Shown one piece after another: positions 30,648 through 63,874 of a stretch of DNA of 64,000 nucleotides (its first letter is position 1; every line of letters starts with the position of its first letter). This DNA comes from a virus. The position numbers were made by a program, and so were the translations under genes. Under the pieces are notes generated by a model that was given only the letters and a program-made list of their open reading frames with translations, did no database searches and had not been told where the DNA came from. Where the stretch lies: positions 37,689 to 101,688 of the IMG/VR virus record IMGVR_UViG_3300030061_002429, one strand, 5' to 3'.

Positions 30648-32040
30648 TATCACCCTTGCGTCTGTAGTACATTCGTCCGTTGCTCTTTTTACGATTGAAT
30701 AGTTTGGGTCCGTAGTCTTTGAAGTGACGCTGTACGGTACTCTTGCTCACTCCCGTATGTGACATATACTGATTCCATACGCTTGATTGCATTCGCCAGC
30801 CGTCACCATGACCATCCAACTCATATCCTGCACATTCGCCATACGCCTTAAGCATATCATCTTGCAACTTGGCTTCCTTTGCTTTGTTACCACCAATCTC
30901 GACAGAATCCTCAAGCCACGCAATGAGGTTTTGGAACAGGTCGAAAAGAATCTCATGCGCCATGTCTACGTGTTCAGGCTTGACTTCCCACTTCTCATCG
31001 AGTAGAGCCATGTGTACTGAAAAGATACCAAGATAATTCTCAACCGCAGGTGTGAAGGATGCTACAATTTCAGACATTGCCGCATCCATGTTGCGTAGTA
31101 GGTCGTATATCTCATCAGACGCTTGATACAGTGCAGTTTCATAGTCACTTGAAGCAGTGAACATATCCCACATCTTTTCTTGTACGAGGTCTTCTTTCTC
31201 ATCATTCGTCATCTCGTCCCATTGCGTGAATGTAATTTCACCCATGTTGAGAAGGCGGTCACGTATGCGCTTCTCGGTTGTTGTAAAGTAATCGTAGATG
31301 TCGTCCTTTGTGTATTCGACCTGCTTTGACTTACGGAAGAATGTACCCAGTCGAGTGTTGCTCACCTCTTGACGCATGTCCATGTCCCAGTGTGCCCAGT
31401 ACAACAGTACACGCTGAAAGATACCTTTCGTCAAGACATACTCCTTGACACCCTTTGGTGGGTACGTTGTAATCCATAGCGACACCAGTGAAGGACACTC
31501 AATCTTGTTACCCTTCATGTGCTTCACAAGTACATTGTTTCCGCTACCTACAGGGTTACAGGCTGTCTGTAGATACAGAACAGTTTCTTGACTGTGCTTG
31601 TTTGGGGTAAGAAGAATAGAACCCTCATCGAAGTTGATACCCTTGCGCCCTGCAAGAAGTCCTTCGACCGTTTCAACCTCGCTTGTTGGTTTACCGTTCT
31701 CATCCATGACGACATTCGTTGAACCAATCAGACCTGCGTCTGTACCCGAAGCAAACAACTCGGTTGGTAAATCGACATTCTCCATGATGTCACCAATGAA
31801 GTTCCATGCAATCGACTTACCCGTTCTCGATGGCTGAATCCAAAAGACGTGTACACGAGGGTCAAGGTGCGTGTCACCTGTCGGTATACGAATGTACGGT
31901 AATGCCAGTTGTCCTTGGATATAGAAAAAGGACAGTAGGCCCGGTATCTCATTGTTCATTGATGTTCTCGAAAAATGATGCAAGTATGCATCAAGAACTG
32001 GGAACTTTTGTACTGCTTTGTAATTGCTTGCTTCTGTCAT
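30634..32040 (-). CDS. AAA+ ATPase, MCM-like putative replicative helicase
   Basis: Walker A PSRTGKS, TDAGLIG, GLL, FDEG, FQR arginine finger; C-terminal HTH-like region. Confidence 0.6.
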   Translation of the reverse strand: MTEASNYKAVQKFPVLDAYLHHFSRTSMNNEIPGLLSFFYIQGQLALPYIRIPTGDTHLDPRVHVFWIQPSRTGKSIAWNFIGDIMENVDLPTELFASGTDAGLIGSTNVVMDENGKPTSEVETVEGLLAGRKGINFDEGSILLTPNKHSQETVLYLQTACNPVGSGNNVLVKHMKGNKIECPSLVSLWITTYPPKGVKEYVLTKGIFQRVLLYWAHWDMDMRQEVSNTRLGTFFRKSKQVEYTKDDIYDYFTTTEKRIRDRLLNMGEITFTQWDEMTNDEKEDLVQEKMWDMFTASSDYETALYQASDEIYDLLRNMDAAMSEIVASFTPAVENYLGIFSVHMALLDEKWEVKPEHVDMAHEILFDLFQNLIAWLEDSVEIGGNKAKEAKLQDDMLKAYGECAGYELDGHGDGWRMQSSVWNQYMSHTGVSKSTVQRHFKDYGPKLFNRKKSNGRMYYRRKGDNGER

Positions 32041-32054
32041 ATTTTCACACCTTC

Positions 32055-32076
32055 TTTCTCTTTGCCAGTTTATAAA
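32055..32076 (-). promoter_or_regulatory. repeated promoter cassette copy 1
   Basis: TTTATAAACTGGCAAAGAGAAA followed by RBS and the helicase ATG. Confidence 0.8.
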
Positions 32077-32778
32077 TCAGCGACGGACTTTACGCTCTTG
32101 TCTTACTTCTTCTTCACTCGTTAGTACTTTCATCAGTAATTTACGTCGTGCTTCACCAAGCCCTTTCACCTGTTTCAATGATTCAGGGAAAGCCATCTCC
32201 TCGATGCTACCGCACTTGTCAAGCAAGCGTTCAGCAATCTCTCGTCCTACGGAGGGTATAGCCATCAGCACGTCCATGCGTATGTCATTGGACGCTACAC
32301 GGCGCACTGCTTGAGCACCATGCTTACTTGCAGGTTTGTGCAACTTGTCGTGTAGTTTAACGACAAACATAGCCGCTTCACTAACGTGTGGAGTGTAGAA
32401 TACTTGGCAGTTGAAATCAGACATAATGCGTGCGATAGTGCCAATCAATTCGCTTTGAACTCGTGAGTATGTGACATTCTTACTCCCCTTGTTCTTCATT
32501 ATGCTTACGTGTTTTTCTATAGAACCGTGTACGAGAAGGAAGAACCTTTCGTAGTTGGCATCCATGTTGTCCAGTTGTCGCCATAGATGACCGTTGTGTG
32601 ATGACTGAAACAAGTCGCTGATGCTCTTGGCTTCAACACACGCCCCTCCTAATTGGTAGTCACCGACCACCAACACTTGGCGTGCGACAGTCATACCTGC
32701 TTTCTCGGCACGTCGTTCTACAGACTCGCATAGTGTTCCTCGTTCATTGCTGTCAATAATTAAATCAGGTTTAGCCAT
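32077..32778 (-). CDS. ERCC4/XPF-family nuclease with HhH motifs
   Basis: IIDSNER, GDY, VEAKSISDL, IPSVG and VKGLG HhH motifs. Confidence 0.85.
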   Translation of the reverse strand: MAKPDLIIDSNERGTLCESVERRAEKAGMTVARQVLVVGDYQLGGACVEAKSISDLFQSSHNGHLWRQLDNMDANYERFFLLVHGSIEKHVSIMKNKGSKNVTYSRVQSELIGTIARIMSDFNCQVFYTPHVSEAAMFVVKLHDKLHKPASKHGAQAVRRVASNDIRMDVLMAIPSVGREIAERLLDKCGSIEEMAFPESLKQVKGLGEARRKLLMKVLTSEEEVRQERKVRR

Positions 32779-35947: not shown

Positions 35948-38350
35948 TCACCATCCATACCTCTTCGGTACTCGCAAGTCCGTTAGAGCATCCAAGTTCC
36001 AATAGAGAGTTTCGTATACTGATTTGATTTTCGACCGAATCCATTTCTCAACGGTAGTCGTCCAGTCGATGCTGTAGCCCTCCAACTGGTGAGGTTCTTC
36101 AAACGCTACGACGTTGCACATGGGTTGCCCTTCGGGAACACCGTCGATAAATACCCATCGTATGCTGTCGCCCTTGTTGAAGTCGGTTTGAAGGTGGAGG
36201 TTGGAGTAGCGTGCCGCTTTCGCAGGGTTGGGTACAACCTTGTCGTACTCATGTAGATGCTTAGAGATACGCCCACTTGAGGCAATCTCTTGCACGTCAC
36301 GCTCACCCTTGTACAACTGTTTGATGAGAGGACGTACCTGTTCAAACACCTCATCTTCATTAGCCCCAGTACCAATTAACGTAAACGCTGTCGAAAGAAT
36401 CTCTTTCGTAATAGCAGGTGCATTCGATGCCTTGAGTGAATACCCAGTGACCTTCATTTGACCCTCCTCTTCGGGAGGGAAAGACTTGATACCAAAGTTG
36501 CGATTCTTCATGTTGGCTGTAAACCAGTATGGGAAGAACGCTTCAAACTCAACGTCAAGGTAAGCCAAATTCATATCTTCTTGTGCGATGGTTGTCAACT
36601 CCTCGCACAAACCTTGAGCCTCATCAAACGGTACTTGTACATACACTGAATCCGTGTGACCTGCAAGTGCTTTGTAGCCACGCTTCTCACACTCATCAAC
36701 GAGCATGGTAATCGACCTGCGACCAAGATAGGTAATGGACTGTGCAATCGCATAGTTACTCCATTGGCCTGAAATTTTACGTGTGCCCGTCATGCCGTAC
36801 AGTGCATTGACTGCAACTTTGACAGCCATCTGCAACATGTTGTAACCCAGTTTCTCATCAGGGTTGGTTGCTTCTTTCATGAGAGTCTTGTACTCCTTAC
36901 GTAGAGCGAGTAATTCTTTAACAACCTTCGGGAACAAACCTTCCGTGGTTTGGTCCCAGTGATATGTACCACCAGTGCCTTCGATGTATGTGCCATCTTT
37001 GTCACGCTTTGGTGGAATGTTGAGTGTGAGTATACCTTCTCCACCCTCATCAACGAGGGTCGTCCAGCATAGGTTAGCGGAGAGGATAATGTTAGGATAT
37101 AGAGATGCGAAGTCTTTCAATGCAACGTTCTCATGACGACCCGGTACGGGTGTCATGACCCATGCGGCTTCAAGTTCAGGCCGTTCTTCAACGAATGAAG
37201 ATGGTGCTTTGAGTTCCGTACGTCGTCCTATCAGACCACGGAAGTAACGAGTCACCTTGTGCGTGCTTGCGAACTGTACACCACAGACTTTCTGTAGCGC
37301 AACGTGGAAGTCAGTGCAATGCAACTTCTCATCACAGTCACGCAAGAGTGTTGTGTCCACTAAACAATAATCAACGAAGTCATCATAGTAATCTGTCCAA
37401 CCGTTAAAGACGGTCATACCTTGAATGTCATTGGTTAGTTTACCTGCGAAACCAAGTTGTTTAGCAAACCAATCCAACTTTCTCGACTCGGCTTGTCCCT
37501 TGCCCGACTTTTGCCATATGGCCTCAAAGCCCGTACCGTCCGTCCACTGTGCGGCTGTGTCATACACCAGTCGTCCTTTGATGGGTTGGCGTGTTGTCTT
37601 GTACCCCGACCCATCCTTTGGTGGTGCAATGAAGATATTGAGTGGCGACATGCGCTCACGCTCAACACCGAGCCTCTTGTGTAGATGAGGCAGGTCAGCC
37701 CAGTGACCTGCGTGTGCAATCAGAATATCAGGGTCACGTTCCTCAAGGAAGGATAAGAAACCATCATGCATCTTGTGCTCATTGGGGAACGTACGCAACT
37801 CATAACCATCGTATCGGTCAATCCATTCAGTCTTGTACACGTTGTTCAGATTACTATGCTCATTCCATGCAAATACCACTGGATGTTCCATGTCGGTATC
37901 GACAACAGCCATGACTGTTGTGTAATCATTGTCACCGTTTGGATTCCATTCAAGGTCGTAATACCACTTACGAGGTTGGAAGTTGGGCATCTCATCAGGG
38001 TACAGTTTCATTAGCACTTGGTCTTGATACGATACATCAGCCTCGTGCGTCCAACGGTCACATCGGTCTTTGAGTTGCCATAGTGTGTTGGGGTGCGATA
38101 CTGATACCTTCCACAACTTGTTGCCGTACAAACCCTGTGCTACTTCATCGTAGTGTATGGTAGCGTTGAGCCGTTGCATCCTACGCAATACGTGTGTAGG
38201 TGCGGCTTGGTCTACCCAACAGAAGGGTCGCACGTAGTCTTCATCTTCCGCACGTATGTATCGCTCGTGCAGTACACCATCAGACCCACGAGTACGTAGG
38301 TACAGCACTGGTGCGTCGTACGCACTTTCCGAATACCAGTCGATTATCAT
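35948..38350 (-). CDS. polB: family B DNA polymerase
   Basis: DLE exonuclease motif, DFASLYP, KVAVNALYG, GHTDS. Confidence 0.95.
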   Translation of the reverse strand: MIIDWYSESAYDAPVLYLRTRGSDGVLHERYIRAEDEDYVRPFCWVDQAAPTHVLRRMQRLNATIHYDEVAQGLYGNKLWKVSVSHPNTLWQLKDRCDRWTHEADVSYQDQVLMKLYPDEMPNFQPRKWYYDLEWNPNGDNDYTTVMAVVDTDMEHPVVFAWNEHSNLNNVYKTEWIDRYDGYELRTFPNEHKMHDGFLSFLEERDPDILIAHAGHWADLPHLHKRLGVERERMSPLNIFIAPPKDGSGYKTTRQPIKGRLVYDTAAQWTDGTGFEAIWQKSGKGQAESRKLDWFAKQLGFAGKLTNDIQGMTVFNGWTDYYDDFVDYCLVDTTLLRDCDEKLHCTDFHVALQKVCGVQFASTHKVTRYFRGLIGRRTELKAPSSFVEERPELEAAWVMTPVPGRHENVALKDFASLYPNIILSANLCWTTLVDEGGEGILTLNIPPKRDKDGTYIEGTGGTYHWDQTTEGLFPKVVKELLALRKEYKTLMKEATNPDEKLGYNMLQMAVKVAVNALYGMTGTRKISGQWSNYAIAQSITYLGRRSITMLVDECEKRGYKALAGHTDSVYVQVPFDEAQGLCEELTTIAQEDMNLAYLDVEFEAFFPYWFTANMKNRNFGIKSFPPEEEGQMKVTGYSLKASNAPAITKEILSTAFTLIGTGANEDEVFEQVRPLIKQLYKGERDVQEIASSGRISKHLHEYDKVVPNPAKAARYSNLHLQTDFNKGDSIRWVFIDGVPEGQPMCNVVAFEEPHQLEGYSIDWTTTVEKWIRSKIKSVYETLYWNLDALTDLRVPKRYGW

Positions 38351-39108
38351 TCATCTCCCTCGTCTATTACAACCAGTAAAGTATTGGCTTGCTCAAAGAT
38401 AAGCGGAGTACCATCACCCATGTGGAAACGTGCAGTGCCTTCATCGAGGTACATCAGACAAACAGGCAACCACTCACCGAAGTTGGATTGGATGGTAGCC
38501 GAAGGTCCGTCTGTGTCCGTGATGGGCAATGTGGTAAACAGGCGACCACTTGCCGCCTTACCTGCAACGATACCGAACTCGTTCTCACCGCAGTGCGTAC
38601 GCACCTTGAACTGTGCATTGTCAGCGATGACCTTACGCATACCTGCAAGCGAAATCAAATCCTTCGTATCAGATATGCTTCCATGAGCACTCAATGGTGA
38701 CTTGTAGAATACAGTGAAGTTGTTGTCGATGCACGCACTGATGACCCGACCCATTGCATTGACCTTTGCAAACGATTCAATCTCGTCTGTACTTGGTATC
38801 TGAAGTCGGTTACCACCTGCATCAATGTGCAGTGGTTTCACTGGTGCAGTCTGTCGCAGTGTGATGTTGGTTTGCTTGCTCGCCTTGATGAATTTCAAGA
38901 ACTTGTCCATCAGTGCAATGTGAATGAAGCCCTCTTCCTCGATAGCCCCTGTTTCAACTGGAAACCTCTTGCGTAGGTAGTGGTTAGCATAGGCCACCTC
39001 AACCGTCAAGAACGCACCACTGCAAGCGATTCGCAGGTCGTCCAAGTCCTTTGCAAAGGACATAAGGAACGACTGAAAATCATTTCTGTTCACTGTTACT
39101 TTTACCAT
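38347..39108 (-). CDS. DNA sliding clamp (PCNA-like)
   Basis: 253 aa, clamp-like alpha/beta pattern, coupled to polB and near RFC. Confidence 0.6.
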   Translation of the reverse strand: MVKVTVNRNDFQSFLMSFAKDLDDLRIACSGAFLTVEVAYANHYLRKRFPVETGAIEEEGFIHIALMDKFLKFIKASKQTNITLRQTAPVKPLHIDAGGNRLQIPSTDEIESFAKVNAMGRVISACIDNNFTVFYKSPLSAHGSISDTKDLISLAGMRKVIADNAQFKVRTHCGENEFGIVAGKAASGRLFTTLPITDTDGPSATIQSNFGEWLPVCLMYLDEGTARFHMGDGTPLIFEQANTLLVVIDEGDE

Positions 39109-39120
39109 AAAATCACCTTA

Positions 39121-39245
39121 TCTGTATGTGATGGGGAGGGGCGGGAGGGAATGTAAAACCCCCCGACGAAGGCGGGATGCCCACAAGGAAGGGTATGCCC
39201 CAATTACTTGTCAGACCCATCACACAGAACCCCTGTACTGTGTGA
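39121..39245. ncRNA. putative structured RNA motif, copy 1
   Basis: Nested stems TGTGATGGG/CCCATCACA and GGGGC/GCCCC with 3 inner hairpins; fills the intergenic gap; homologous to 52535-52626. Confidence 0.55.
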
Positions 39246-39248
39246 ATA

Positions 39249-40199
39249 TCAAAGTTCTCCTTGATACAATTCTGGAAGGCCATACCATTCAGGCTCGCCA
39301 TCAGGTCTTGTAACGAATATCTTACGTCGTTGGTCTTGTAGGTTCGGGTTCGTCTTACACTTGTCGAACACTGCGTAGTAGACCGTTTCAATCAATTCAC
39401 CATCCGCATCGAAGACTTCTTCTTTCTCGGTCTTCAAGATGGTTGGAAGGTAGTTGTTGGACCTCTTCTCCCAGTCAGCGACGTATCGCTTGTTAGGTCC
39501 ATAGAAGTCCCTTGTCGTGACGTGCGTTTCCCAAAAGACACGTACGCCCATGCGAACAAGGTCACGAGAGAGCGAGGTCAATTGGTGGAAACGAGTGTTG
39601 CGGATAGCCCATGTCGATTGCTTATCGACCTTCGCCGCACCACTTCCGTCAGCCGCTTGAATGGCATCGCTTGCCAATCCCAAGTCCACAATACGCATGT
39701 TGTTGGTGCATATCTCAAGCCACGAATCAACACCACTGATGATGATACCCCAAATCGGTACACCTTGTTGCACTTGATTGTAAAAGTGCTTCATCAAGTT
39801 CATGACACGCTGATGTGTGTCAGGATAGTTGTAGGCTGTACGGTCGTTGTGACTCATCGCCCACGGATTCCATGAGATGATGTTCTCTTGTGGATGCAAT
39901 GCCGATGAAAGCATACCCACACCCATGTCGAAATCAATCGAGTGAAGGACTGAACCCTCCACCTTCTTCTTGTCGTTGCGGAACGCATCGAGTATGATAC
40001 CACTCTTACCTGTTCCGTCCTCGCCCCACACACCGATGAACTGATACTTCTTCTGTTTCGCATTCATCAGTAGTGCTTGTTCTTTCTCGAAAGACGCAAA
40101 GGGATTATCAGATGCAACAGCCGCTTGTGCTGTCGCTTCCTTCTTCGCTTCTTTCACTTCTTCTTTGATGTCCTGTACTTGTTGTCCAAATCCTGCCAT
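39249..40199 (-). CDS. RecA-fold P-loop ATPase (Sak4/AAA_24-like recombinase)
   Basis: GEDGTGKS, IDFD, IIISGVD, ETH. Confidence 0.7.
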   Translation of the reverse strand: MAGFGQQVQDIKEEVKEAKKEATAQAAVASDNPFASFEKEQALLMNAKQKKYQFIGVWGEDGTGKSGIILDAFRNDKKKVEGSVLHSIDFDMGVGMLSSALHPQENIISWNPWAMSHNDRTAYNYPDTHQRVMNLMKHFYNQVQQGVPIWGIIISGVDSWLEICTNNMRIVDLGLASDAIQAADGSGAAKVDKQSTWAIRNTRFHQLTSLSRDLVRMGVRVFWETHVTTRDFYGPNKRYVADWEKRSNNYLPTILKTEKEEVFDADGELIETVYYAVFDKCKTNPNLQDQRRKIFVTRPDGEPEWYGLPELYQGEL

Positions 40200-40210
40200 G
40201 TTTATTCCTC

Positions 40211-41548
40211 CTAATCGAATTGTCCTACTCCTGTGTTGCCACCAGTTGCACGTCGTCGGCTACGTCTTGGGTCAGCATAGACACCAAAGACGCTCATCTT
40301 GGGTGAAACAACACCGTTGTATTCCTTCATACCAAGACGGCCAAAGACAAGCACCGTAGAATTTTCAGCAATGTCAAACGCATCATCGCCCCAACCCGCT
40401 TTGAACGGTGTTGTAAGTTTGCCGACTGCACCTGAAATCCAACACGTCATGTCACCTGTAATGCTACTGGTGAGCGTCATGGAGTAGTTGTGACCTTCGG
40501 GGTCATACTCACTCTCACGAGGTTCTGTGTTGAGTGTTGATACCATACCTCGTGTGAACACGAGTGGACCCCATGAACGCTTCTCGCCTCCAATCATGCC
40601 ACTCTCCTTGCGAGTTTCAAACGCCTCCTCAAGTTCGTCAATGTGTACGTAGTAGTCGTGACCCAAATCTCGTGATGTCCAAAACTTGGATGCATTGAGA
40701 AGAGGCTTCACGTTATCAGCAACGAAGTCATCTGTGTATTCAACCTCAAAGGAACGGTATGTACCGAGTACATCCTTGAAGTTCTCACTCGCCTTCTCTC
40801 GTGGAGGTACGACCTGTATCTTACATGGCCGTCCGATGTCCACTTCAAGGTTTGATAACTCGTTGTTCAAGTCGATACGCCACAGTGAAACCTCACCCTG
40901 CTTGACAAACTTCTCTTCTTCGTTGCCGAGGAAGTAGTAGTAGCGACCCATCTTCTTGTACGGTGCAGGGTCGTCATTGTATGATGTAAGGCACACCCAA
41001 TCTTGGTCTACTTTAACACCGAAAGGTGGATTCTCATCAGCCGATACCTCAAGTTTCTTGACACCGTTCTTCGTATGCAATGACCAGTTCGCACCAGTCC
41101 TTTCAAACACACCAAGACGACCACTACCAATTGCTTCATTGGGGTCTTCCTGATACAACTTGATGTTGCTTGCAAGAATGTTCGCAAGCCTATCTCGTGT
41201 ACGGTCTTGTACACCTACGAACTCACCGACCCACGTCGATAGGTTCGCATTGCTTCCACCGCTTTGCTTGCGGGTTTCAGTGAACACTTGTTCGGCCCAA
41301 TCAATGAGCAGGTCTTCATCTGATTCCTGTGTGTAGTCATCCACACCGTAATGTTCCTTGATGTAGTCAAGGTACATTTGTCGTGCTTCGTCGGGCTTCT
41401 TTCCTGTACGTTCAGCAAATGCATTCATACGAACAAGGACACCCTTCGGTAAGTCGTTGCTCGTGGATTCTTGCACTTCTCCAAACCCATTCGTTTCTTC
41501 GTTCATGTTTTCCATCTCCATGTATTCATCTTCTTCTTGCCAAGTCAT
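40211..41548 (-). CDS. putative RPA/SSB (OB-fold)
   Basis: Acidic; OB-like C-terminus VLVFGRL...MSVFGVY; position in replication module. Confidence 0.55.
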   Translation of the reverse strand: MTWQEEDEYMEMENMNEETNGFGEVQESTSNDLPKGVLVRMNAFAERTGKKPDEARQMYLDYIKEHYGVDDYTQESDEDLLIDWAEQVFTETRKQSGGSNANLSTWVGEFVGVQDRTRDRLANILASNIKLYQEDPNEAIGSGRLGVFERTGANWSLHTKNGVKKLEVSADENPPFGVKVDQDWVCLTSYNDDPAPYKKMGRYYYFLGNEEEKFVKQGEVSLWRIDLNNELSNLEVDIGRPCKIQVVPPREKASENFKDVLGTYRSFEVEYTDDFVADNVKPLLNASKFWTSRDLGHDYYVHIDELEEAFETRKESGMIGGEKRSWGPLVFTRGMVSTLNTEPRESEYDPEGHNYSMTLTSSITGDMTCWISGAVGKLTTPFKAGWGDDAFDIAENSTVLVFGRLGMKEYNGVVSPKMSVFGVYADPRRSRRRATGGNTGVGQFD

Positions 41549-42471
41549 TGTTTCAACTCCTTCTTCAATCGAGCAGTAAATACGTCCACGTATGCCGCAT
41601 CAGTACCTACAAATTCATGCACAATCTGCATCATCTCACCCCAAACATATGTCACGGCAAACGCTGTTTCAGGCGTATTGTCGAACTGTTTGCTGATGTA
41701 CTTGTGCAGTCCATGCATGAATGTGGTGCGATTACCTGCATCTCTCAATCGCTGATGCAGGGTCTTGCGGATGTTGTCGAACTTGTGCTCATCAAGTTCA
41801 GCCCACCAGTTGTCTTCGCTGTCCTGTGTCACCACATGGTCAAGCGCATCAGGTGTGCGCTTGAGGGTGGACAGGTAATTGACACTCTTTCGTAGGTCAC
41901 CATCCATTCGTTCAACGAGCGCAGGGTAATTCTTCACCCACTCACTCGGTAGAAAATCAAGTCGTGATAGGTGCTTTGCACCCTCACTCGGAACAACACG
42001 GTCAAACACGTAGGTACGACATCGACTCTTAATCGCCTCGTGTATCTTCTCACCTTGATTTGCAGTGAGAATGAACACAATACGATTGGCGTATTGCTCC
42101 ATGATACCACGTAGGATTTGCTGTGCCTGTACAGTGAAACCATCGAACTCATCAAGCACAATGGGTTTCTTTTCTGTGCCTACACCACGCAAACGACAGA
42201 ACTGTTTGACCTCTTCACGGACAAAGGCGATGCCTCGTTCATCACTGGCATTCGTCCAAAGCATATTGATTGCGTTGTGAGCCTTACCGAGTATAGTACG
42301 ACACATGACATTGGCCGCACTGGACTTACCCGTACCCGGTGGTCCGAGTAAGAGGACGGCTGATGGGTAATCATCATTCTCAACCCAGTGACGCATGTCA
42401 TCTGTGAACTCCTTGTTGCCGACGATTTCATCGACAGTAACAGGGCGTAGTTGCTCATTCCAATTGTCCAT
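41545..42471 (-). CDS. rfcS: replication factor C small subunit (clamp loader)
   Basis: W.E..RP, GPPGTGKSS, NASDERG, LDEFD, SRC, GDLRK; start MDNW follows the promoter cassette. Confidence 0.92.
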   Translation of the reverse strand: MDNWNEQLRPVTVDEIVGNKEFTDDMRHWVENDDYPSAVLLLGPPGTGKSSAANVMCRTILGKAHNAINMLWTNASDERGIAFVREEVKQFCRLRGVGTEKKPIVLDEFDGFTVQAQQILRGIMEQYANRIVFILTANQGEKIHEAIKSRCRTYVFDRVVPSEGAKHLSRLDFLPSEWVKNYPALVERMDGDLRKSVNYLSTLKRTPDALDHVVTQDSEDNWWAELDEHKFDNIRKTLHQRLRDAGNRTTFMHGLHKYISKQFDNTPETAFAVTYVWGEMMQIVHEFVGTDAAYVDVFTARLKKELKQ

Positions 42472-42484
42472 ATTTCTCACCTTC

Positions 42485-42506
42485 TTTCTCTTTGCCAATT
42501 TATAAA
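42485..42506 (-). promoter_or_regulatory. repeated promoter cassette copy 2
   Basis: TTTATAAATTGGCAAAGAGAAA then GAAGGTGA. Confidence 0.8.
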
Positions 42507-42511
42507 GCAAA

Positions 42512-42787
42512 TCATCTCTTTCTCTCTTTTTGTGTTTTCTCACGAAGTTCTTCATTCATGTGATTAACCATCTTAATAAATGATTCAATTGATTCGGCAT
42601 GAAGAACGGCATGTAGTGATTTGAATTGTTCTTCCGTTAAGACATCCCATATTTTCATTTGCATAAAACTTTGAAGTGAGTGTCTTGTTCTTGTTTTTTT
42701 AAATTTCTTGACAACTTCAATAGGAAGCCCAAAGACGACTATTAACATTTCATCAAACATCGAATACATGCGTATATTATAATTCAT
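42512..42787 (-). CDS. hypothetical protein (AT-rich)
   Basis: ORF overlapping upstream stop. Confidence 0.55.
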   Translation of the reverse strand: MNYNIRMYSMFDEMLIVVFGLPIEVVKKFKKTRTRHSLQSFMQMKIWDVLTEEQFKSLHAVLHAESIESFIKMVNHMNEELREKTQKERKR

Positions 42788-47446: not shown

Positions 47447-47962
47447 TCAAGCACCTCGTCCATACTGCAATACCATTGCCAACAATTGAGGATGCGTTTC
47501 ACGTAGGGTCTTGATTGGTGTGTGGTAAATCAAATCATCAAACACACTCAACAGGTCATCTCGTTGTACACCCATGATGAGTAGCACTTCCCCAACAGGT
47601 ACGTCTTCAACGTCAGCCACACGATGTTCAGGCTTGACCGCTTCAATAACGTCGTTCACTTTCTTGTGGTCTGCACTGTAATATTGTGCATTAACATGCG
47701 ATTGATTCCATTGCTTTGCACCTGAAATGATACGACTGTACACCATGCGTTTGCGTGATGGACACTTACGCTTGGTTGCATATCCCATCTGTGCCATGTT
47801 TGATAATTGTTCGGACAAGTTCTTGAATGTCACATTGGAACGCTTGGAGATGAACGGGAAGAGTTCTTCTCGTGAACACTCCGTATCTCCAAACTCTTCA
47901 TTCAATACTCGCCAAACATAGTTGCGCTTCGTTTCTTTTGGTTGTCTTTTGTAAACTGCCAT
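47447..47962 (-). CDS. putative winged-helix DNA-binding protein
   Basis: Basic N-terminus; LSEQLSNMAQMGY...KRMVYS. Confidence 0.5.
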   Translation of the reverse strand: MAVYKRQPKETKRNYVWRVLNEEFGDTECSREELFPFISKRSNVTFKNLSEQLSNMAQMGYATKRKCPSRKRMVYSRIISGAKQWNQSHVNAQYYSADHKKVNDVIEAVKPEHRVADVEDVPVGEVLLIMGVQRDDLLSVFDDLIYHTPIKTLRETHPQLLAMVLQYGRGA

Positions 47963-47974
47963 TTTATCACCTTC

Positions 47975-47996
47975 TTTCTCTTTGCCGATTTATAAA
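47975..47996 (-). promoter_or_regulatory. repeated promoter cassette copy 3
   Basis: TTTATAAATCGGCAAAGAGAAA then GAAGGTGA. Confidence 0.8.
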
Positions 47997-48005
47997 GGAA
48001 ATCGG

Positions 48006-49366: not shown

Positions 49367-49684
49367 TCATTCCTCCTCCCGTAGTTCATCGAATGGGTCT
49401 TCGATAACAGTGTTAGATAGTTTGAATGTTGTTGTACGCATTACACCGCACATGATACAGATTTGCAAGTTCTTCACAATCTCACTACTGTTATCATCGT
49501 ACCGAAGACCAGTCCATCCGTCTTGCCACTCTATGTCATGCCAGTCATGGTGTGATTCTTCACAGATATGTGTCCTGTAGCCTTGCCTCTCAAACTCTTC
49601 AAGCAGTGCCAGTCGTCGTTGCAGTGCTTGCAACTCCACACTTATCTTCATCTTCGCATCAATTATCTTGTCAGTTGTCGTCAT
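49367..49684 (-). CDS. hypothetical protein
   Basis: First gene after promoter copy 4; C...H...CIMC. Confidence 0.7.
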   Translation of the reverse strand: MTTTDKIIDAKMKISVELQALQRRLALLEEFERQGYRTHICEESHHDWHDIEWQDGWTGLRYDDNSSEIVKNLQICIMCGVMRTTTFKLSNTVIEDPFDELREEE

Positions 49685-49696
49685 TTTATCATCCTC

Positions 49697-49718
49697 TTTC
49701 TCTTTGCCAGTTTATAAA
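49697..49718 (-). promoter_or_regulatory. repeated promoter cassette copy 4
   Basis: TTTATAAACTGGCAAAGAGAAA then GAGGATGA. Confidence 0.8.
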
Positions 49719-49736
49719 TCAACAGTGAAAGTATGC

Positions 49737-51612: not shown

Positions 51613-51818
51613 TCGTTCACCTCATCCATTAACAGTTTCAACCATTCGTTCACAATAGCCATACCCCTGAGTAACTCTATCTTGCACATCCTTGCCCAAT
51701 CACTCACGTCATCCATATCGTGTATGTGATAGAAGGACAGGATGTTGTCGGTTAGATTGTTAGCCTGTACCTTGAGGTCGATTGCTCCCACTTGTATTTC
51801 TTCAATGCTTTCGCTCAT
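51609..51818 (-). CDS. hypothetical protein
   Basis: First gene after promoter copy 5. Confidence 0.6.
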   Translation of the reverse strand: MSESIEEIQVGAIDLKVQANNLTDNILSFYHIHDMDDVSDWARMCKIELLRGMAIVNEWLKLLMDEVNE

Positions 51819-51845
51819 ACTTTCACTTCCAATGTTTTCACCTTC

Positions 51846-51867
51846 TTTCTCTTTGCCGATTTATAAA
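51846..51867 (-). promoter_or_regulatory. repeated promoter cassette copy 5
   Basis: TTTATAAATCGGCAAAGAGAAA then GAAGGTGA. Confidence 0.8.
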
Positions 51868-51882
51868 GCAAAGATTACTGAA

Positions 51883-52506
51883 TCAAGCCACTCGTCGTGC
51901 AATGTCTTGCACTCGTTGTTGCATGATGTTGCGAGTCTGTGCATCACGGAGGTACTGCAATGCTTGTTCCATTGGTTCGATACCTCCATGTGCATCGAGT
52001 GAACGTCCTAAGTCTTGTTCACTCATCCCCTGAAACACAGGGTTGCGTTGTCGAAGTGAGTCGAGTTCACCTACATTCGTGGTGAATCTATCTCCCTTCG
52101 GTGCGCCCATTGCTCGGAACGCACCCGCCCCTCCTACATCGACGTAGGAGAGAGAGCCGTCAGGTTGGCGTAGTACATTGTCACCCGTCATACCAAGCAC
52201 ATCCCAGTTGGCTGTTAATGCGTGGGGTACGAAGTCACGCTGTAGTTGTCGTACGTCTTCTTGAGTTGGTCTTGTGCCGACCTCTTGTGAATCGGCTATG
52301 AAGTCGGCAAGCATGGTTGGCTTTCCCCTGTGTGTAATCATCTCGGCTTGAGGTACATTCACACCTAAAGCATTCAAGTATCGGTTCATGTCGAACTCGT
52401 TCTGAATGTGTGCAGGATGCGCTCCTTGCTTGCCTACTCGTGGCCCCTGTTCAGTATCGTACAGGGTTGCACCAGTCGAACCTCCTAAGAATCGAACTGG
52501 TCGCAT
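51883..52506 (-). CDS. HipA/PI3-4-kinase-like kinase
   Basis: Gly loop LGGSTGA, V.K, NE helix C, ANWDV.G...DNVL catalytic loop, YVDVG. Confidence 0.72.
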   Translation of the reverse strand: MRPVRFLGGSTGATLYDTEQGPRVGKQGAHPAHIQNEFDMNRYLNALGVNVPQAEMITHRGKPTMLADFIADSQEVGTRPTQEDVRQLQRDFVPHALTANWDVLGMTGDNVLRQPDGSLSYVDVGGAGAFRAMGAPKGDRFTTNVGELDSLRQRNPVFQGMSEQDLGRSLDAHGGIEPMEQALQYLRDAQTRNIMQQRVQDIARRVA

Positions 52507-52534
52507 GGTTATCCCATGTAATCATTGTACATAA

Positions 52535-52626
52535 ATTCAGATGGGGAAGGGCTTCATTGTGAAAACACAACAACTATCTCCGAGGTCAAACCTTTTGCCC
52601 TTATTATTGGATAAACCCATGCGAAT
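52535..52626. ncRNA. putative structured RNA motif, copy 2
   Basis: ATGGGGAAGGGC...GCCCTTATTATTGGATAAACCCAT; covaries with copy 1. Confidence 0.5.
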
Positions 52627-52857
52627 CTAATCAAGTGGATGTTCTATATTCAGGTCACCCAGTACCCATCGCAACGCCTTGACCACGCCTTCCAGTGCTT
52701 TGTAGTTTCTCATGTGAAACATACGCTTGTCCCTCGTGCATGATTGCATTGCTGTGTAATGTTTATTTTGTAATCGCTCGGCTTTGTCGAGCATCTCTTC
52801 AATCTCTACCCACGTTCTTTCGTAGGTGAAGTGTTCACTGTCTTGATGGTCGTTCAT
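52627..52857 (-). CDS. hypothetical helical protein
   Basis: MNDHQDSEHF...ALEGVVKALRWVLGD. Confidence 0.7.
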   Translation of the reverse strand: MNDHQDSEHFTYERTWVEIEEMLDKAERLQNKHYTAMQSCTRDKRMFHMRNYKALEGVVKALRWVLGDLNIEHPLD

Positions 52858-53180
52858 TCTACTTCCGCCTTCCATTCGCTTTGTTCTTCATCACCATACT
52901 GTACCATGACACGATGGCCTTTTTCAAGCATCCATGTTTCACAGTCTTCGTAACAACGAGCATCCCTGTAATCATAGAAGGCTTGCACGATTCGTCGCTC
53001 AATACGCAGTGCTTCACGCAACCGCTTGACTTCTGCAAGAAGTTTTGGTGCGTCATTCAGTAGTGCGGAGGTAGCCTTGTGTTGTTCAATCGTTTCAGCG
53101 TTTTTCAGCATCCATTTAGACCAAGCCCAAGTCTGTCCTTCACTCGCTAAGTGTCCTTCGTATTTGTCTGTGTCAATCAT
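52854..53180 (-). CDS. MIDTDKYEG family member 1
   Basis: Constant boxes MIDTDKYEGH and DAPKLLAEVKRLRE. Confidence 0.8.
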   Translation of the reverse strand: MIDTDKYEGHLASEGQTWAWSKWMLKNAETIEQHKATSALLNDAPKLLAEVKRLREALRIERRIVQAFYDYRDARCYEDCETWMLEKGHRVMVQYGDEEQSEWKAEVE

Positions 53181-53518
53181 TCTTCCTCATCCTCGTGGTA
53201 ACCTATCATATCTCTCAAGCAATCAGTGGCATGTTGTATGTCACGAATGTAGTGGTTGTCCATGCTGTCAATCATGTCCACAATCTGCTCACGCAACCGC
53301 TTGACTTCTTGAAGGAGTAGTGGTGCGTCTTGTAAGAGTTGAATGTTAGGGTAATCAGCGTGAGTGAAGTCAATGTCAGTGAAGTAAGATGTTTCAGTCA
53401 CCAGCACTCCGTTTGCATCTACGATGTCAAGGTGAGAGCCTTCGTCATCGTATGGTTGTCCTTCGGCAGTTCGCCACGGCCCCAACCTGTGTCCTTCGTA
53501 TTTGTCTGTGTCAATCAT
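53177..53518 (-). CDS. MIDTDKYEG family member 2
   Basis: HRLGPW; DAPLLLQEVKRLRE. Confidence 0.8.
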   Translation of the reverse strand: MIDTDKYEGHRLGPWRTAEGQPYDDEGSHLDIVDANGVLVTETSYFTDIDFTHADYPNIQLLQDAPLLLQEVKRLREQIVDMIDSMDNHYIRDIQHATDCLRDMIGYHEDEEE

Positions 53519-53825
53519 GTTTCGTCATCTCCTTGTATGTTCCCCCATAAAGCCATGTGCATTTCATAGAATCGCATCCACGAATCGCTTCATGTAATCG
53601 CTCATTCTCTTCACGCAACCGCTTGACTTCGGCAAGAAGTTTTGGTGCGTCTGCCATAAGTTGTTGAGTTGGCGTATCATCATTCCAATCTTCGCCAACA
53701 AGTTCAACAGTACATGGCTCTCCTAAAACCTGTACTATTTCTTTCCCTATTGCATTGTATAAGCAAAAGTAATCCCAATGCCACGGTCCTTCTGTATGTC
53801 CTTCGTATTTGTCTGTGTCAATCAT
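53511..53825 (-). CDS. MIDTDKYEG family member 3
   Basis: HTEGPW; DAPKLLAEVKRLREENERL. Confidence 0.8.
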   Translation of the reverse strand: MIDTDKYEGHTEGPWHWDYFCLYNAIGKEIVQVLGEPCTVELVGEDWNDDTPTQQLMADAPKLLAEVKRLREENERLHEAIRGCDSMKCTWLYGGTYKEMTKHD

Positions 53826-53829
53826 TCAA

Positions 53830-54291
53830 TCACCTCTTTCGTGCAACTTCACTTGGTTCACCCCAATGCTTTACCCAAGCATCTCGGTTAGTAGTAATGT
53901 ATCTCTCAATGAGTTGAACAGTTCCTTCTTCGTCATAATCCCAATAGTGGGTTTCGGGATAGAGCCATACTTCCATAGCGTAGTGCCATGTGTTATCTCC
54001 TACCTGCGCCCTCATGTGTTCGGCTTGTGTGATTGCATAGTCTTTCAACTGATACTTCTTGACTTCTTGAAGGATTAGTGGTGCGTCAGCGATGAGTTGT
54101 GCGTCGGCCTTAGACAATGTATTCTTACGCACACCGAGCATACATTTATCGAGGCGTGTAACATTGATGGATTGAGAGTTGTTCTTGTGTGTAGGAAGAA
54201 GAACCTCCCATCCAAAACCGTGTGTGTCTGTACCATCGTATGCGTACCATTCTCCTTCTGTATGTCCTTCGTATTTGTCTGTGTCAATCAT
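53830..54291 (-). CDS. MIDTDKYEG family member 4
   Basis: HTEGEW; DAQLIADAPLILQEVK. Confidence 0.8.
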   Translation of the reverse strand: MIDTDKYEGHTEGEWYAYDGTDTHGFGWEVLLPTHKNNSQSINVTRLDKCMLGVRKNTLSKADAQLIADAPLILQEVKKYQLKDYAITQAEHMRAQVGDNTWHYAMEVWLYPETHYWDYDEEGTVQLIERYITTNRDAWVKHWGEPSEVARKR

Positions 54292-54620
54292 TCTTCTTCA
54301 CCCCAAACATAGTCATCAAAGTTCATCATCGCTGAATCATTGTGGAGAACTTGTTTGTAAGCCCATTTAGTCGCCCTTGATAACTGTTCACTCAACCTCT
54401 TGATGTATGCTTCTCGTCCGTCTAATTCTTCACGCAATCGCTTGACTTCCTCAAGGAGAAGTGGTGAGTCGGCTATAAGATGAGTATTGATTTCTTCAAT
54501 CACAGTCGCAATTTTACCACCTACATTCCCTATTTTGCAAGCGTCTTGAGCATGGATGCGCTCTCCATGAATCTCCCACGGCGCAGGTGTATGTCCTTCG
54601 TATTTGTCTGTGTCAATCAT
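54288..54620 (-). CDS. MIDTDKYEG family member 5
   Basis: HTPAPW; LIADSPLLLEEVKRLRE. Confidence 0.8.
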   Translation of the reverse strand: MIDTDKYEGHTPAPWEIHGERIHAQDACKIGNVGGKIATVIEEINTHLIADSPLLLEEVKRLREELDGREAYIKRLSEQLSRATKWAYKQVLHNDSAMMNFDDYVWGEEE

Positions 54621-54847
54621 TCTTCTTCACTCCTATACTCTTCATCGTAAGCACCATATCCAACGGCTTTCTCAACCATGTCCCTTAGTCGCTCATTTTC
54701 TTCACGCAGTCGCTTGTACGCTTCAAGGAGAAGTGGTGCGTCATTCAGTAGTGCATAAGTAGCAACCAGTTCTTTTCCATCATTCACAACCACTATCTCA
54801 TAAGTGTATTCGGTTGAGTGTCCGTCGTATTTGTTTGTGTCAATCAT
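54617..54847 (-). CDS. MIDTDKYEG family member 6
   Basis: MIDTNKYDGH; ALLNDAPLLLEAYKRLREENERL. Confidence 0.8.
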   Translation of the reverse strand: MIDTNKYDGHSTEYTYEIVVVNDGKELVATYALLNDAPLLLEAYKRLREENERLRDMVEKAVGYGAYDEEYRSEEE

Positions 54848-55047
54848 TCAATCATCACCTTCAAAGCACCTTTGATTCCCAATAAAATATCTTCATCCTC
54901 ATAAGTGATAACTGCATCAAGATATTCATACAATGTCTTCACTCCTTTTCGCAACCGCTTGACTTCTGCGAGCAGGTCAAGTGCCAACACATTGTTTCTC
55001 CCATCATCATCTTTGAGAATGCGCTCGTATTCGTCTGTGTCAATCAT
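54844..55047 (-). CDS. MIDTDKYEG family member 7 (minimal)
   Basis: MIDTDEYE; LLAEVKRLR. Confidence 0.75.
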   Translation of the reverse strand: MIDTDEYERILKDDDGRNNVLALDLLAEVKRLRKGVKTLYEYLDAVITYEDEDILLGIKGALKVMIE

Positions 55048-55649
55048 TCTTCTTCACCTTTTGATACACCTTGTGTTGGTCGCTTACCTTCACACTGAAT
55101 GTACGCATTGTTTTGTTCAACGAAGTTAATCATTTCACTGCACTTCTTGAAATCAATATCAAGTCGCCATGTGTTTGAGAAGTTGAACTTGAACACATGC
55201 TCAAGGTTTGGATTCATCACTGCATTGTTTGAGCCGTCAATGACCAACTGGTAGCCATCTTCGTACTTTTCAACACTGATGTTACGCACGTAACATACTG
55301 TATCTGATGCAAACGACGTATGTGTTGCTTTGAGAGCATGTAAATATGCCCCCACATCAGGAGGCATGGTGTACTTACCTGCGAAACCGTATTCACGGTT
55401 GATGGTAACTTCACCAAAGCCCTGTACATGCATGACACCAGTGCCCTCGCTACTGATTGTCCTTACCTGTAAGGTCGGTTCGTTCACTTGTTTTGCTTCT
55501 TTGTATTGTTCGTCTATTGTTTGTTCTCCCATGTTGTTCACTTCCATATTCATTGGCATTGGCACAGAAAATAGTTTCGCAATGAAATCTTGTGCATCTG
55601 CAATTTGTTCGGTCATTTCTTTTGTTTCGTCTTCATTGTTTTCGGTCAT
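55044..55649 (-). CDS. hypothetical protein
   Basis: 201 aa ORF. Confidence 0.7.
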   Translation of the reverse strand: MTENNEDETKEMTEQIADAQDFIAKLFSVPMPMNMEVNNMGEQTIDEQYKEAKQVNEPTLQVRTISSEGTGVMHVQGFGEVTINREYGFAGKYTMPPDVGAYLHALKATHTSFASDTVCYVRNISVEKYEDGYQLVIDGSNNAVMNPNLEHVFKFNFSNTWRLDIDFKKCSEMINFVEQNNAYIQCEGKRPTQGVSKGEEE

Positions 55650-55857: not shown

Positions 55858-56105
55858 TCCTCCTCGTTCATGTAATCAGGTATGTTCATCGGTATCAGTG
55901 ATGCTCGGTTGGGTACGACGTACGATGGTCCGACATCCGATAGGTCGTTGAATAACTCCCATCCACGAGTCGTCTTGCGTACCATGTAGCCCACGTATCG
56001 CTCGTCACCGTTCTCAACGAAGGTCACTTGATACCAATGTGGGTTCACTCGTTGCATCTCATACCAATGCGTTGTGCTTAATACCAGTCTGTAATAGTCA
56101 TCCAT
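55854..56105 (-). CDS. hypothetical protein
   Basis: Start MDDYY follows promoter copy 6. Confidence 0.65.
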   Translation of the reverse strand: MDDYYRLVLSTTHWYEMQRVNPHWYQVTFVENGDERYVGYMVRKTTRGWELFNDLSDVGPSYVVPNRASLIPMNIPDYMNEEE

Positions 56106-56119
56106 AGTTCTCATCTCCA

Positions 56120-56140
56120 TTCTCTTTGCCAATTTATAAA
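56120..56140 (-). promoter_or_regulatory. repeated promoter cassette copy 6
   Basis: TTTATAAATTGGCAAAGAGAA then TGGAGATGA. Confidence 0.75.
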
Positions 56141-56166
56141 GCAGTGATTGATGATAGTCATCAGAC

Positions 56167-57480: not shown

Positions 57481-57493
57481 ATTTCTCATCTCC

Positions 57494-57515
57494 TTTCTCT
57501 TTGCCAGTTTATATA
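57494..57515 (-). promoter_or_regulatory. repeated promoter cassette copy 7
   Basis: TATATAAACTGGCAAAGAGAAA then GGAGATGA. Confidence 0.75.
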
Positions 57516-61117: not shown

Positions 61118-61144
61118 ACTTTAACCTCCATTGTTTTCATCCTC

Positions 61145-61166
61145 TTTCTCTTTGCCGATTTATAAA
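61145..61166 (-). promoter_or_regulatory. repeated promoter cassette copy 8
   Basis: TTTATAAATCGGCAAAGAGAAA then GAGGATGA. Confidence 0.8.
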
Positions 61167-63770: not shown

Positions 63771-63874
63771 TGTATCGACCTCTCTCTCTTTGCCGAGTTA
63801 TAAAGCAACTTAACTGCGATGGTAATGTACACTGCTCCGACGAACAGAAGGGGGAACACTTCGACCATGTTCAT
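63767..63874 (-). CDS. 35-aa membrane peptide spanning promoter copy 9
   Basis: MNMVEVFPLLFVGAVYITIAVKLLYNSAKRERSIQ*; ATGA overlaps at both ends. Confidence 0.45.
   Translation of the reverse strand: MNMVEVFPLLFVGAVYITIAVKLLYNSAKRERSIQ
63783..63804 (-). promoter_or_regulatory. repeated promoter cassette copy 9
   Basis: TTTATAACTCGGCAAAGAGAGA. Confidence 0.7.

Follow-up and report, generated by a model that had tools for sequence, protein, structure and literature searches.

The 140-nucleotide (nt) gap between the genes for a predicted RecA/RadA-like ATPase and a predicted PCNA-fold sliding clamp, in the 64,000-nt stretch of viral DNA analyzed here (positions 37,689 to 101,688 of the IMG/VR virus record IMGVR_UViG_3300030061_002429, hereafter the window), almost certainly encodes a real and selected RNA structure. 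The element is organized around an outer helix (P1), an inner helix (P2), a hairpin (P3) and a pseudoknot, with a further hairpin (P0) preceding P1, and it recurs directly after the RadA-like gene in related viral genomes. Its role is probably the post-transcriptional control of the replication operon in which it lies, and the reading that we favor, at a probability of roughly 0.35, is that it would serve as a nuclease-resistant processing or stability boundary within the operon mRNA. As the minus strand carries every gene around the element, the element belongs to the sense RNA of that strand. An earlier note on this DNA gave its coordinates correctly but described it on the other strand, so that the RNA sense is the reverse complement of the letters given there.

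Covariation on the sense strand

Viral contigs hold several groups of clamp relatives, whose protein identity ranges from 98% to about 50%, and the gap upstream of the clamp gene can be aligned across them in blocks only, within which a common plan recurs. A covariance model (R2) in which P1 and P2 alone were annotated, run against 351 kb of related viral DNA, returned 50 instances, every one of them on the sense strand, and a single weak stray match at E 7.4 (E-values of this model, and of the model R1 introduced below, are rough). The covariation alignment holds 39 distinct elements and one stray match, or 40 distinct rows. Standard pairs are formed in 99.5% of its 392 cells in P1 and P2, 9 of the 10 pairs vary on both sides, and 112 cells are compensatory. 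Partners slid out of register pair in ~55% of cells and shuffled ones in 73%, shuffle controls that overstate the significance because the sequences are related.

Since the R2 alignment is fitted to the model that produced it, two further checks were made. RNAalifold, applied to a plain MAFFT alignment of 15 diverse members, recovers P1 and P2 de novo, with compensatory changes in 8 of 12 pairs. A direct count over the 39 distinct elements gives 374 Watson-Crick pairs, 11 G-U pairs and no A-C apposition in the two helices; P1 is represented by 13 distinct helices with 99% of cells paired, and P2 by 22 distinct helices with 100% of cells paired and all 5 pairs varying on both sides. The occurrence of G-U without A-C indicates that the structure is read on the sense strand, which fits RNA and not duplex DNA.

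This asymmetry bears directly on the view that the gap holds incidental structure, whether an ordinary terminator together with promoter or 5' untranslated region signals, or a DNA-level element such as an origin or a set of protein-binding inverted repeats. The intergenic position beside the replication module would suit such a view, as would the U/T-run that follows a G-rich segment in many members and the G-quadruplex-like GGGGAGGGGCGGGAGGG on the complementary strand of the window. Against these stand the compensatory changes in four helices, with their 11 G-U pairs and no A-C, which are strand-specific and RNA-like; moreover, the T-run is missing in close relatives such as locus L020 and in copy 2a of the second site described below, a promoter-like motif that occurs nine times in the window does not occur in the window's gap, and the G-quadruplex motif is confined to the window's lineage. 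We regard an incidental origin as very improbable and, given the strand-specific covariation, a DNA-level or incidental explanation as largely excluded.

The earlier note had proposed a structured RNA motif, a proposal borne out by the covariance models, by RNAalifold and by the direct pair counts. It had also named what would speak against the motif, namely a lack of homologues or covariation in relatives, or folding no better than shuffled controls. Homologues and covariation are found, but folding is weak against shuffles: single-sequence z values are -0.16 for the whole gap in the sense direction, -1.84 for the element alone and -0.73 for its second copy alone. The case therefore rests on the comparison of relatives and not on folding energy. 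The same comparison speaks to coding potential. Among relatives whose clamps are 98% identical, the element measures 98, 96, 97 and 103 nt, and such indels, not being multiples of three, exclude a coding region. A 92-amino-acid (aa) open reading frame (ORF) that spans the gap (39113-39391, minus strand) was rejected for this reason, the close relatives differing by indels of 1, 2 and 5 nt.

Architecture of the element

The element is about 85-135 nt long across the family. Read 5' to 3', the plan begins with the stop codon of the RadA-like gene, P0, the 5' arm of P1, a pseudoknot strand of the form UUU(U)RNNN, the hexamer RGUAAU and the 5' arm of P2; it continues with a variable linker that may or may not contain a hairpin, the pseudoknot partner, P3, the 3' arm of P2, two to three pyrimidines and the 3' arm of P1. 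A spacer of 4-12 nt then leads to the Shine-Dalgarno (SD) sequence and AUG of the next cistron. In the window the parts, all on the minus strand and given in RNA order, are as follows.

39238-39245 and 39220-39227, minus: arms of the P0 hairpin, from sequence; the 3' arm continues directly into P1
39216-39224, minus: P1 5' arm, UGUGAUGGG, from covariation; conserved core AUGGG at 39216-39220
39210-39215, minus: pseudoknot 5' strand, UCUGAC, in the 5' half of a large internal loop; pairs with GUCGGG
39203-39208, minus: single-stranded hexamer AGUAAU (conserved as RGUAAU), lying between the pseudoknot 5' strand and P2
39197-39201, minus: P2 5' arm, GGGGC, from covariation
39162-39167, minus: pseudoknot 3' strand, GUCGGG, overlapping the first G residues of P3
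39143-39164, minus: P3 hairpin, with a G-run 5' arm (39159-39164), a U-rich loop and a 3' arm CCCUCC(C) (39143-39149) beside the P2 3' arm
39138-39142, minus: P2 3' arm, GCCCC, from covariation
39136-39137, minus: 3' loop, UC
39127-39135, minus: P1 3' arm, CCCAUCACA
39112-39119, minus: SD sequence of the clamp gene, AAGGUGAU, from sequence
39106-39108, minus: ATG of the clamp gene

The outer stem of the earlier description (39216-39228 with 39121-39135) forms 11 contiguous pairs in the sense RNA, one of them G-U, and the GGGGC/GCCCC stem within it (39197-39201 with 39138-39142) is present and, as P2, covaries in relatives. Of the three inner hairpins in that description, one has stood. P3, with its G-rich 5' arm, U-rich loop and C/U-rich 3' arm just 5' of the P2 3' arm, is conserved and appears in nearly all constrained folds, while the other inner hairpins vary or are missing in relatives.

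In the large internal loop, the 5' half, UUU(U)RNNN, can pair with bases that adjoin the P3 G-run on its 5' side and continue into it; as this pairing crosses P2, it constitutes a pseudoknot. The NNN positions co-vary with their partners (GAC/GUC, GUCA/UGAC, GUAC/GUAC, GCA/UGC and GCCA/UGGC, and further GGUGC/GUGCC, AGC/GCU, GAUGG/CCGUC, GUGA/UCAC and AUCC/GGAGAU), and ~15 different pseudoknot helix sequences were identified by eye. Because the interior cannot be aligned by MAFFT and the register relative to P3 varies, a permutation test took the place of a column-wise count; each loop was compared, free of register, with the 12 nt beside its own P3 and then with those of the other members. 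Own duplexes have a mean of -3.85 kcal/mol versus -1.88 kcal/mol for foreign ones, and none of 5000 permutations was as good. The single-stranded positions are conserved in sequence: the hexamer reads A/G-A/G-UAAU in 38 of the 39 distinct elements, with AGUAAA in the remaining one, and 36 of the 39 have UC, CC or UU as their 3' loop.

P0 had been thought of as one half of a switch, mutually exclusive with the outer stem. The hairpin itself, TCACACAG/CTGTGTGA (39238-39245/39220-39227), is present right after the stop codon, and its GUGA is common to the extended outer stem. It starts about 3 nt past the stop codon, some five bases on from that codon's first base, and ends where P1 starts. In most relatives, P0 merely abuts P1, and the overlap between P0 and an extended P1 is found in the window's lineage and a few others, so that a conserved switch of this kind is not upheld. 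The P0 position is occupied in relatives by hairpins of other sequence (for example, CAATACC/GGTATTG, CTCG/CGAG and CTCA..TGAG); in most of them, CUC beyond the stop codon is the partner of a 5' flank (U/C)GAG, which pairs with the 3' flank in only about half. Nor does the outer stem appear to end at the ribosome-binding site so as to hide it, the complementarity of the P1 3' arm and its flank to the SD sequence being no better than that of shuffles (mean z +0.28).

On the plus strand, which is the template, positions 39133-39149 read GGGGAGGGGCGGGAGGG, a run of the canonical G-quadruplex-forming type. Complementary to the C-rich 3' arms of P3, P2 and P1, it occurs in the window's lineage only and is not a feature of the family.

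A second site in the window

A second copy some 13 kb away had been suggested from matching ends, and it is found at 52541-52624. The 12-mer ATGGGGARGGGC occurs exactly twice in the window, as opposed to 0.14 occurrences expected by chance.

52541-52624, minus: second locus, carrying copy 2
52541-52620, minus: copy 2 of the element (R2 score 80 bits, E 1e-14)
52616-52620 with 52541-52545, minus: P1 of copy 2
52609-52615 with 52574-52581, minus: pseudoknot of copy 2
52597-52601 with 52548-52552, minus: P2 of copy 2
52571-52574 with 52556-52559, minus: P3 of copy 2

The compensatory change noticed earlier at the base of the inner stem, G-C in one copy and A-U in the other, is there (GGGGC/GCCCC versus AGGGC/GCCCU). 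In two relatives, L015 (1796-1970) and L016 (1798-1970), the region matching window positions 52507-52626 holds copy 2 as two tandem units of about 87 nt, each preceded by ATTCAC. The units differ in P1 (GAGG/CCUC versus AUGGG/CCCAU), in P2 (ACUGC/GCAGU versus AGGGC/GCCCU) and in P3 (GUGG/CCAU versus GUUG/CAAU, a compensatory U-A/G-C change). The window keeps only the second of the two, which suggests gain or loss by recombination between short direct repeats.

The window and its relatives were searched with R1, a covariance model for which five copy-2 units were the only input. It recovers clamp-linked elements at full length and on the correct strand (L062, E 5e-11; L047, 5e-4; L055, 3e-3; L024 and L006, ~0.01), with no unrelated match at E<=10. 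That a model made only of copy-2 sequences finds elements of the copy-1 type is independent evidence that both loci belong to one family. A pattern search with GTYTGWCAAGTAATWRGRGG, a pattern that excluded the window's own variant, matched the L007 clade only.

Copy 2 is flanked by an 82-aa ORF (stop at 52627-52629) and by a 207-aa gene (ATG at 52504-52506), for which no Pfam or PHROG family was found beyond a weak HipA-like lead. The distance from copy 2 to the start codon is 35 nt, and the SD sequence there is poor. Immediately upstream of copy 2, in a shared operon, an array of seven short genes at 52854-55073 carries repeated 5' boxes (repeat families D2-D5).

The replication operon and its virus

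The genes on either side of copy 1 are those of a replication module.

39249-40199, minus: RecA/RadA-like ATPase gene, 316 aa, an ORF and the upstream neighbor; stop TGA at 39249-39251
39109-39248, minus: intergenic gap, 140 nt, between the RadA-like and clamp genes
38347-39108, minus: PCNA-fold sliding clamp gene, 253 aa, an ORF and the downstream neighbor
35948-38350, minus: family B DNA polymerase (PolB) gene, following the clamp gene (Pfam PF00136, E 3.6e-45)

By its AlphaFold2 model (mean predicted local distance difference test, pLDDT, 84.6), the 316-aa product is a RecA/RadA-like ATPase, its best Foldseek matches being RecA, Rad51, RadA and Sak4 at E 5e-9 to 1e-6. The model of the 253-aa product (pLDDT 93.5) has a PCNA fold, with archaeal PCNAs as the top Foldseek matches at E about 1e-13. 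In the sense direction the order is a promoter-like motif, an RFC-like AAA+ ATPase gene (Pfam AAA / DNA_pol3_delta2), a 445-aa gene, the 316-aa gene, the gap, the 253-aa gene and PolB. For the RFC-like gene (41545-42555), the listed start at 42555 is probably too far upstream, as an in-frame ATG stands at 42471, after the promoter-like motif and a AAGGTGAG SD sequence.

This promoter-like motif, TTTATAAATYGGCAAAGAGAAAGAAGGTGA, was found by a repeat scan nine times in the window, always on the minus strand.

32024-32081, minus: site 1
42454-42511, minus: site 2
47944-48001, minus: site 3
49666-49723, minus: site 4
51815-51872, minus: site 5
56088-56145, minus: site 6
57463-57520, minus: site 7
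61114-61171, minus: site 8
63752-63809, minus: site 9

It reads TTTATAAAT(C/T)GGCAAAGAGAAAGAAGGTGA, with the start codon next, and looks like an archaeal TATA-box promoter with a common leader and SD sequence, heading each replication or early operon.

The source record is 101.7 kb long and ~94% complete, the window being its 3' 64 kb. The virus also encodes an SNF2 helicase and a thermosome-type chaperonin; marine samples are the source of the homologues of its proteins, and its polymerase is nearest those of haloviruses. This gene set agrees with that given for the group A magroviruses in their description (PMC5434244). From the gene set we infer a group-A-like magrovirus, i.e., a marine archaeal tailed virus, whose host would be an archaeon of Marine Group II. 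Elsewhere in the window, the virion module contains a single open frame of 5576 aa (6478-23208), downstream of a tape-measure-like gene (3923-5257) with PHROG tail tape measure matches. The best match of the viral thermosome gene in the genome collection, at 51% identity, lies on a 9.6-kb contig (L093, NZQM01000180.1) labeled as part of a Parvibaculum metagenome-assembled genome; binned as it is with an alphaproteobacterium, this contig is probably a mis-binned viral or archaeal fragment.

Distribution, context and alternative functions

Of 24 whole viral records, 19 have a match, each with one copy, and one of these is a complete genome of 107.6 kb that has terminal repeats. Among the records in which no match scores, some hold a recognizable, more divergent element (G015). 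In the RadA-like/clamp gap of record G009 (C1:22879-23474, locus L174), there is a P1/P2-like frame, UGGGG...AGGGC / GCCCU...CCCCA, with two inner hairpins; it is without the conserved UUUG...GUAAU loop, an inserted ORF separates it from the clamp gene, and it may represent the element in a degenerate or alternative form. The second site is found in the window's own lineage only (G000, G001 and G002), as a single or tandem copy.

In every clamp-linked relative inspected, the element comes straight after a RadA-like homologue, whatever lies downstream. The usual downstream context is an SD sequence of the GAGGUGAU type, 4-12 nt past the P1 3' arm, followed by the clamp gene. In an insertion clade (L033, L036, L038, L040-L042, L044, L058 and L061), a small ORF with its own SD sequence follows the element instead; the inserted ORF, at ~2219-2500 of those loci, encodes about 90 aa beginning MAHVKSMS..., and its SD sequence, of the GAGGUGAU type, stands right after the element. 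In the clade of L025, L026 and L068, the element is set apart from the clamp start by a promoter-like TATA motif and about 45 nt; it is under selection there as well, and the changes in its helices are all pair-preserving. The motif that occurs nine times in the window is likewise situated between the RNA element and the clamp gene in the clade of L007 and L025.

The arrangement of these downstream sequences is what would be expected, in part, of a translational operator. A viral protein (the polymerase, the clamp, the RadA-like ATPase or a single-strand-binding protein) would bind the loop and pseudoknot and would block or trap ribosomes at the SD sequence 4-12 nt downstream, giving autogenous control of clamp and PolB. 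In most lineages there is a free GAGGUGAU SD sequence at that distance, whichever gene comes next; RGUAAU and the U-run are conserved and single-stranded; the second site before another gene in the window's lineage would suit a small regulon; and replisome genes of the T4 type are textbook cases of translational repression. Harder to accommodate are the relatives L025, L026 and L068, which keep the element, with pair-preserving changes, despite the TATA-type motif and ~45 nt ahead of the start codon, and copy 2, where the start codon is 35 nt off and the SD sequence poor. We consider an operator to be somewhat unlikely.

With Rfam 15 at gathering thresholds, there are 0 matches in the whole window and 0 in 20 diverse related loci, which agrees with the earlier view that the motif is unannotated. 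At E<=10 on 39050-39300, two chance matches fall outside the element (SNORD75, 11.7 bits, and SOX2OT, 9.3 bits). In the same 251-nt region no hammerhead, twister, twister-sister, pistol, hatchet or hepatitis delta virus-like model matches at E<=10, a result that weighs against the proposal of a self-cleaving ribozyme of a new class cutting the polycistronic mRNA between the RadA-like and clamp cistrons. The compact pseudoknotted fold, with few invariant nucleotides and highly variable helices, does resemble that of small ribozymes, and the intergenic and viral location, the tandem and extra copies and the independence of position from downstream content would all be in keeping with one. On the other hand, no candidate cleavage site can be named, and most genomes carry the element once, at a syntenic position, in contrast to many ribozyme classes. 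A ribozyme is thus unlikely.

The phylum Thermoplasmatota, which we take to include the presumed hosts (Marine Group II), was sampled as well, and R2 gives no match in the 151 genomes of that sample, which does not prove absence from the phylum. The element is seen at syntenic viral sites only, which tells against a riboswitch, whose aptamer would be formed by the P1/pseudoknot/P2 core and whose ligand, a small molecule such as a nucleotide or a metabolite related to deoxynucleoside triphosphates, would tune the replication genes. The fold is aptamer-like in its covariation, its pseudoknot, its conserved junction nucleotides and its enclosing P1 beside an SD sequence; the tandem copy 2 recalls tandem riboswitches; and the order of strands inside P1 is that of the preQ1-II type of pseudoknot with an embedded hairpin. 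Yet no expression platform is evident, complementarity to the SD sequence not being in excess (the mean z of +0.28 given above), competition between P0 and P1 is not conserved, the U-run sits in the P3 loop and is not conserved, and one clade keeps the element upstream of a promoter motif. A riboswitch seems to us distinctly improbable.

Several further candidates were tried and rejected. An intrinsic terminator was discarded, as the U-run follows only the 5' arm of P3, and so is a loop, and is missing in L020 and copy 2a. A bacterial-type terminator plus promoter at copy 1 was set aside, the nine-copy TATA-like motif not being in the gap and the T-run not being conserved. By eye, the defining sequence features of a C/D-box, a K-turn, a selenocysteine insertion sequence, stop-codon read-through or ribosome bypass are missing. 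A miniature inverted-repeat transposable element or other inverted-repeat DNA element was rejected because the copy is single and syntenic and the G-U pairs are strand-specific.

A proposed boundary in the replication message

The earlier note had offered a cis-regulatory switch, a processing site or a small non-coding RNA as possible roles; the data lean toward processing or stability, or toward the binding of a factor, and away from a classical switch. We favor a processing or stability boundary because the element is tied to the end of the upstream cistron, independent of what lies downstream and present in extra tandem copies, and because its compact pseudoknotted fold has the inner strand order of the exoribonuclease-resistant RNA (xrRNA) core of flaviviruses. 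Further pointers are its occurrence as one copy in most viral records and the lack of matches in the 151 Thermoplasmatota genomes sampled.

As we picture it, the element would be transcribed within the sense polycistronic replication mRNA; in the window, the genes continue past it without a new promoter motif. The compact fold would then mark, or withstand, RNA processing at the boundary between the RadA side and the PCNA/PolB side of the message and would shield the adjoining segment from exonucleolytic decay. The neighboring ribosome-binding site would stay free, the SD sequence not being sequestered by the P1 3' arm or its flank, and the abundance of the two halves of the message could differ as a result. 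A trans-acting factor that reads the conserved loop may contribute.

Several observations weigh against this boundary role. The conserved single-stranded RGUAAU and the U-run fit a pocket for a ligand or protein equally well, and a translational operator would likewise account for the spacing from the SD sequence, which is short and, across most lineages, constant. Some members lack the optional hairpin needed to complete a three-way junction. With an xrRNA, finally, the element shares strand topology only, and no Rfam covariance model matches it.

To our knowledge, hardly any structured regulatory RNA has been described from archaeal viruses, and we know of no magrovirus that has been cultured. 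Four covarying helices, a pseudoknot and invariant loop bases are hallmarks common to riboswitches, ribozymes and nuclease-resistant RNAs. We rate the element as a new RNA family of a known general kind, that of cis-acting structured viral RNAs. There is a real, if lesser, chance that archaeal viruses have here a new functional class of RNA, of which the element would be the first member: a ligand-sensing riboswitch, a self-cleaving ribozyme or an archaeal counterpart of the xrRNAs, built on a pseudoknot enclosed by P1 and a conserved RGUAAU loop. If so, it would be the first such RNA for archaeal viruses. Lying at the center of a replication operon, between the recombinase-like ATPase and the clamp and polymerase genes, the element could reveal how abundant ocean viruses set the dosage of their replisome parts, and it provides a clean lineage marker for metagenomes and metatranscriptomes. 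A search by term of the magrovirus description (PMC5434244) turned up no RNA element, nor was it found in literature searches. A 2023 survey reports 8,495 unnamed candidate structured RNAs predicted from IMG/VR (PMC10690425), among which the motif may already be listed, undescribed.

Comparison with known systems

Among the systems that invite comparison, the bacterial intercistronic stabilizers and processing structures of the puf, pap and gapA type are, like the element, intra-operon and placed between cistrons that need different dosage; the element's position, too, is bound to the end of the upstream cistron. These stabilizers are simple hairpins without a conserved loop, whereas the element is a four-helix, pseudoknotted structure with invariant single-stranded bases.

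Translational control is exemplified by T4 gene 32, gene 43 and RegA and by the S4 and S15 pseudoknots of E. coli. The T4 operators (the gene 32 pseudoknot, the gp43 hairpin and the RegA sites) and the S4 and S15 pseudoknots share with the element a structured, partly pseudoknotted RNA beside the start of a replisome or operon gene on a polycistronic mRNA, and the free SD sequence next to the element's fold is compatible with entrapment. The element differs in being unrelated in sequence, larger in fold and, as we suppose, archaeal in host, and in being kept where a promoter intervenes.

With the preQ1-II and preQ1-III riboswitches the element has in common the topology S1, L1, S2, S1', embedded hairpin, S2', as well as a location just upstream of a ribosome-binding site and conserved loop nucleotides. 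There is no covariance-model match to them, the element's SD sequence is outside the fold and not sequestered, and the element is enclosed by P1 and restricted to one virus lineage at a syntenic site.

The flavivirus xrRNA core runs in the order 5' strand, helix, hairpin, partner of the 5' strand, hairpin, helix. Sequence and covariance-model similarity to it are lacking in the element, which has in addition an outer P1 and P0, a longer pseudoknot (4-9 base pairs) and a 6-nt RGUAAU linker, and whose middle hairpin is optional; the presumed archaeal host has other nucleases, and the likeness extends to strand order only. Within P1 the order of strands is equal, the first inner hairpin being missing from some members, and gives a junction closed by a 5' pseudoknot; both RNAs are viral, compact, able to be tandem and found at a message boundary.

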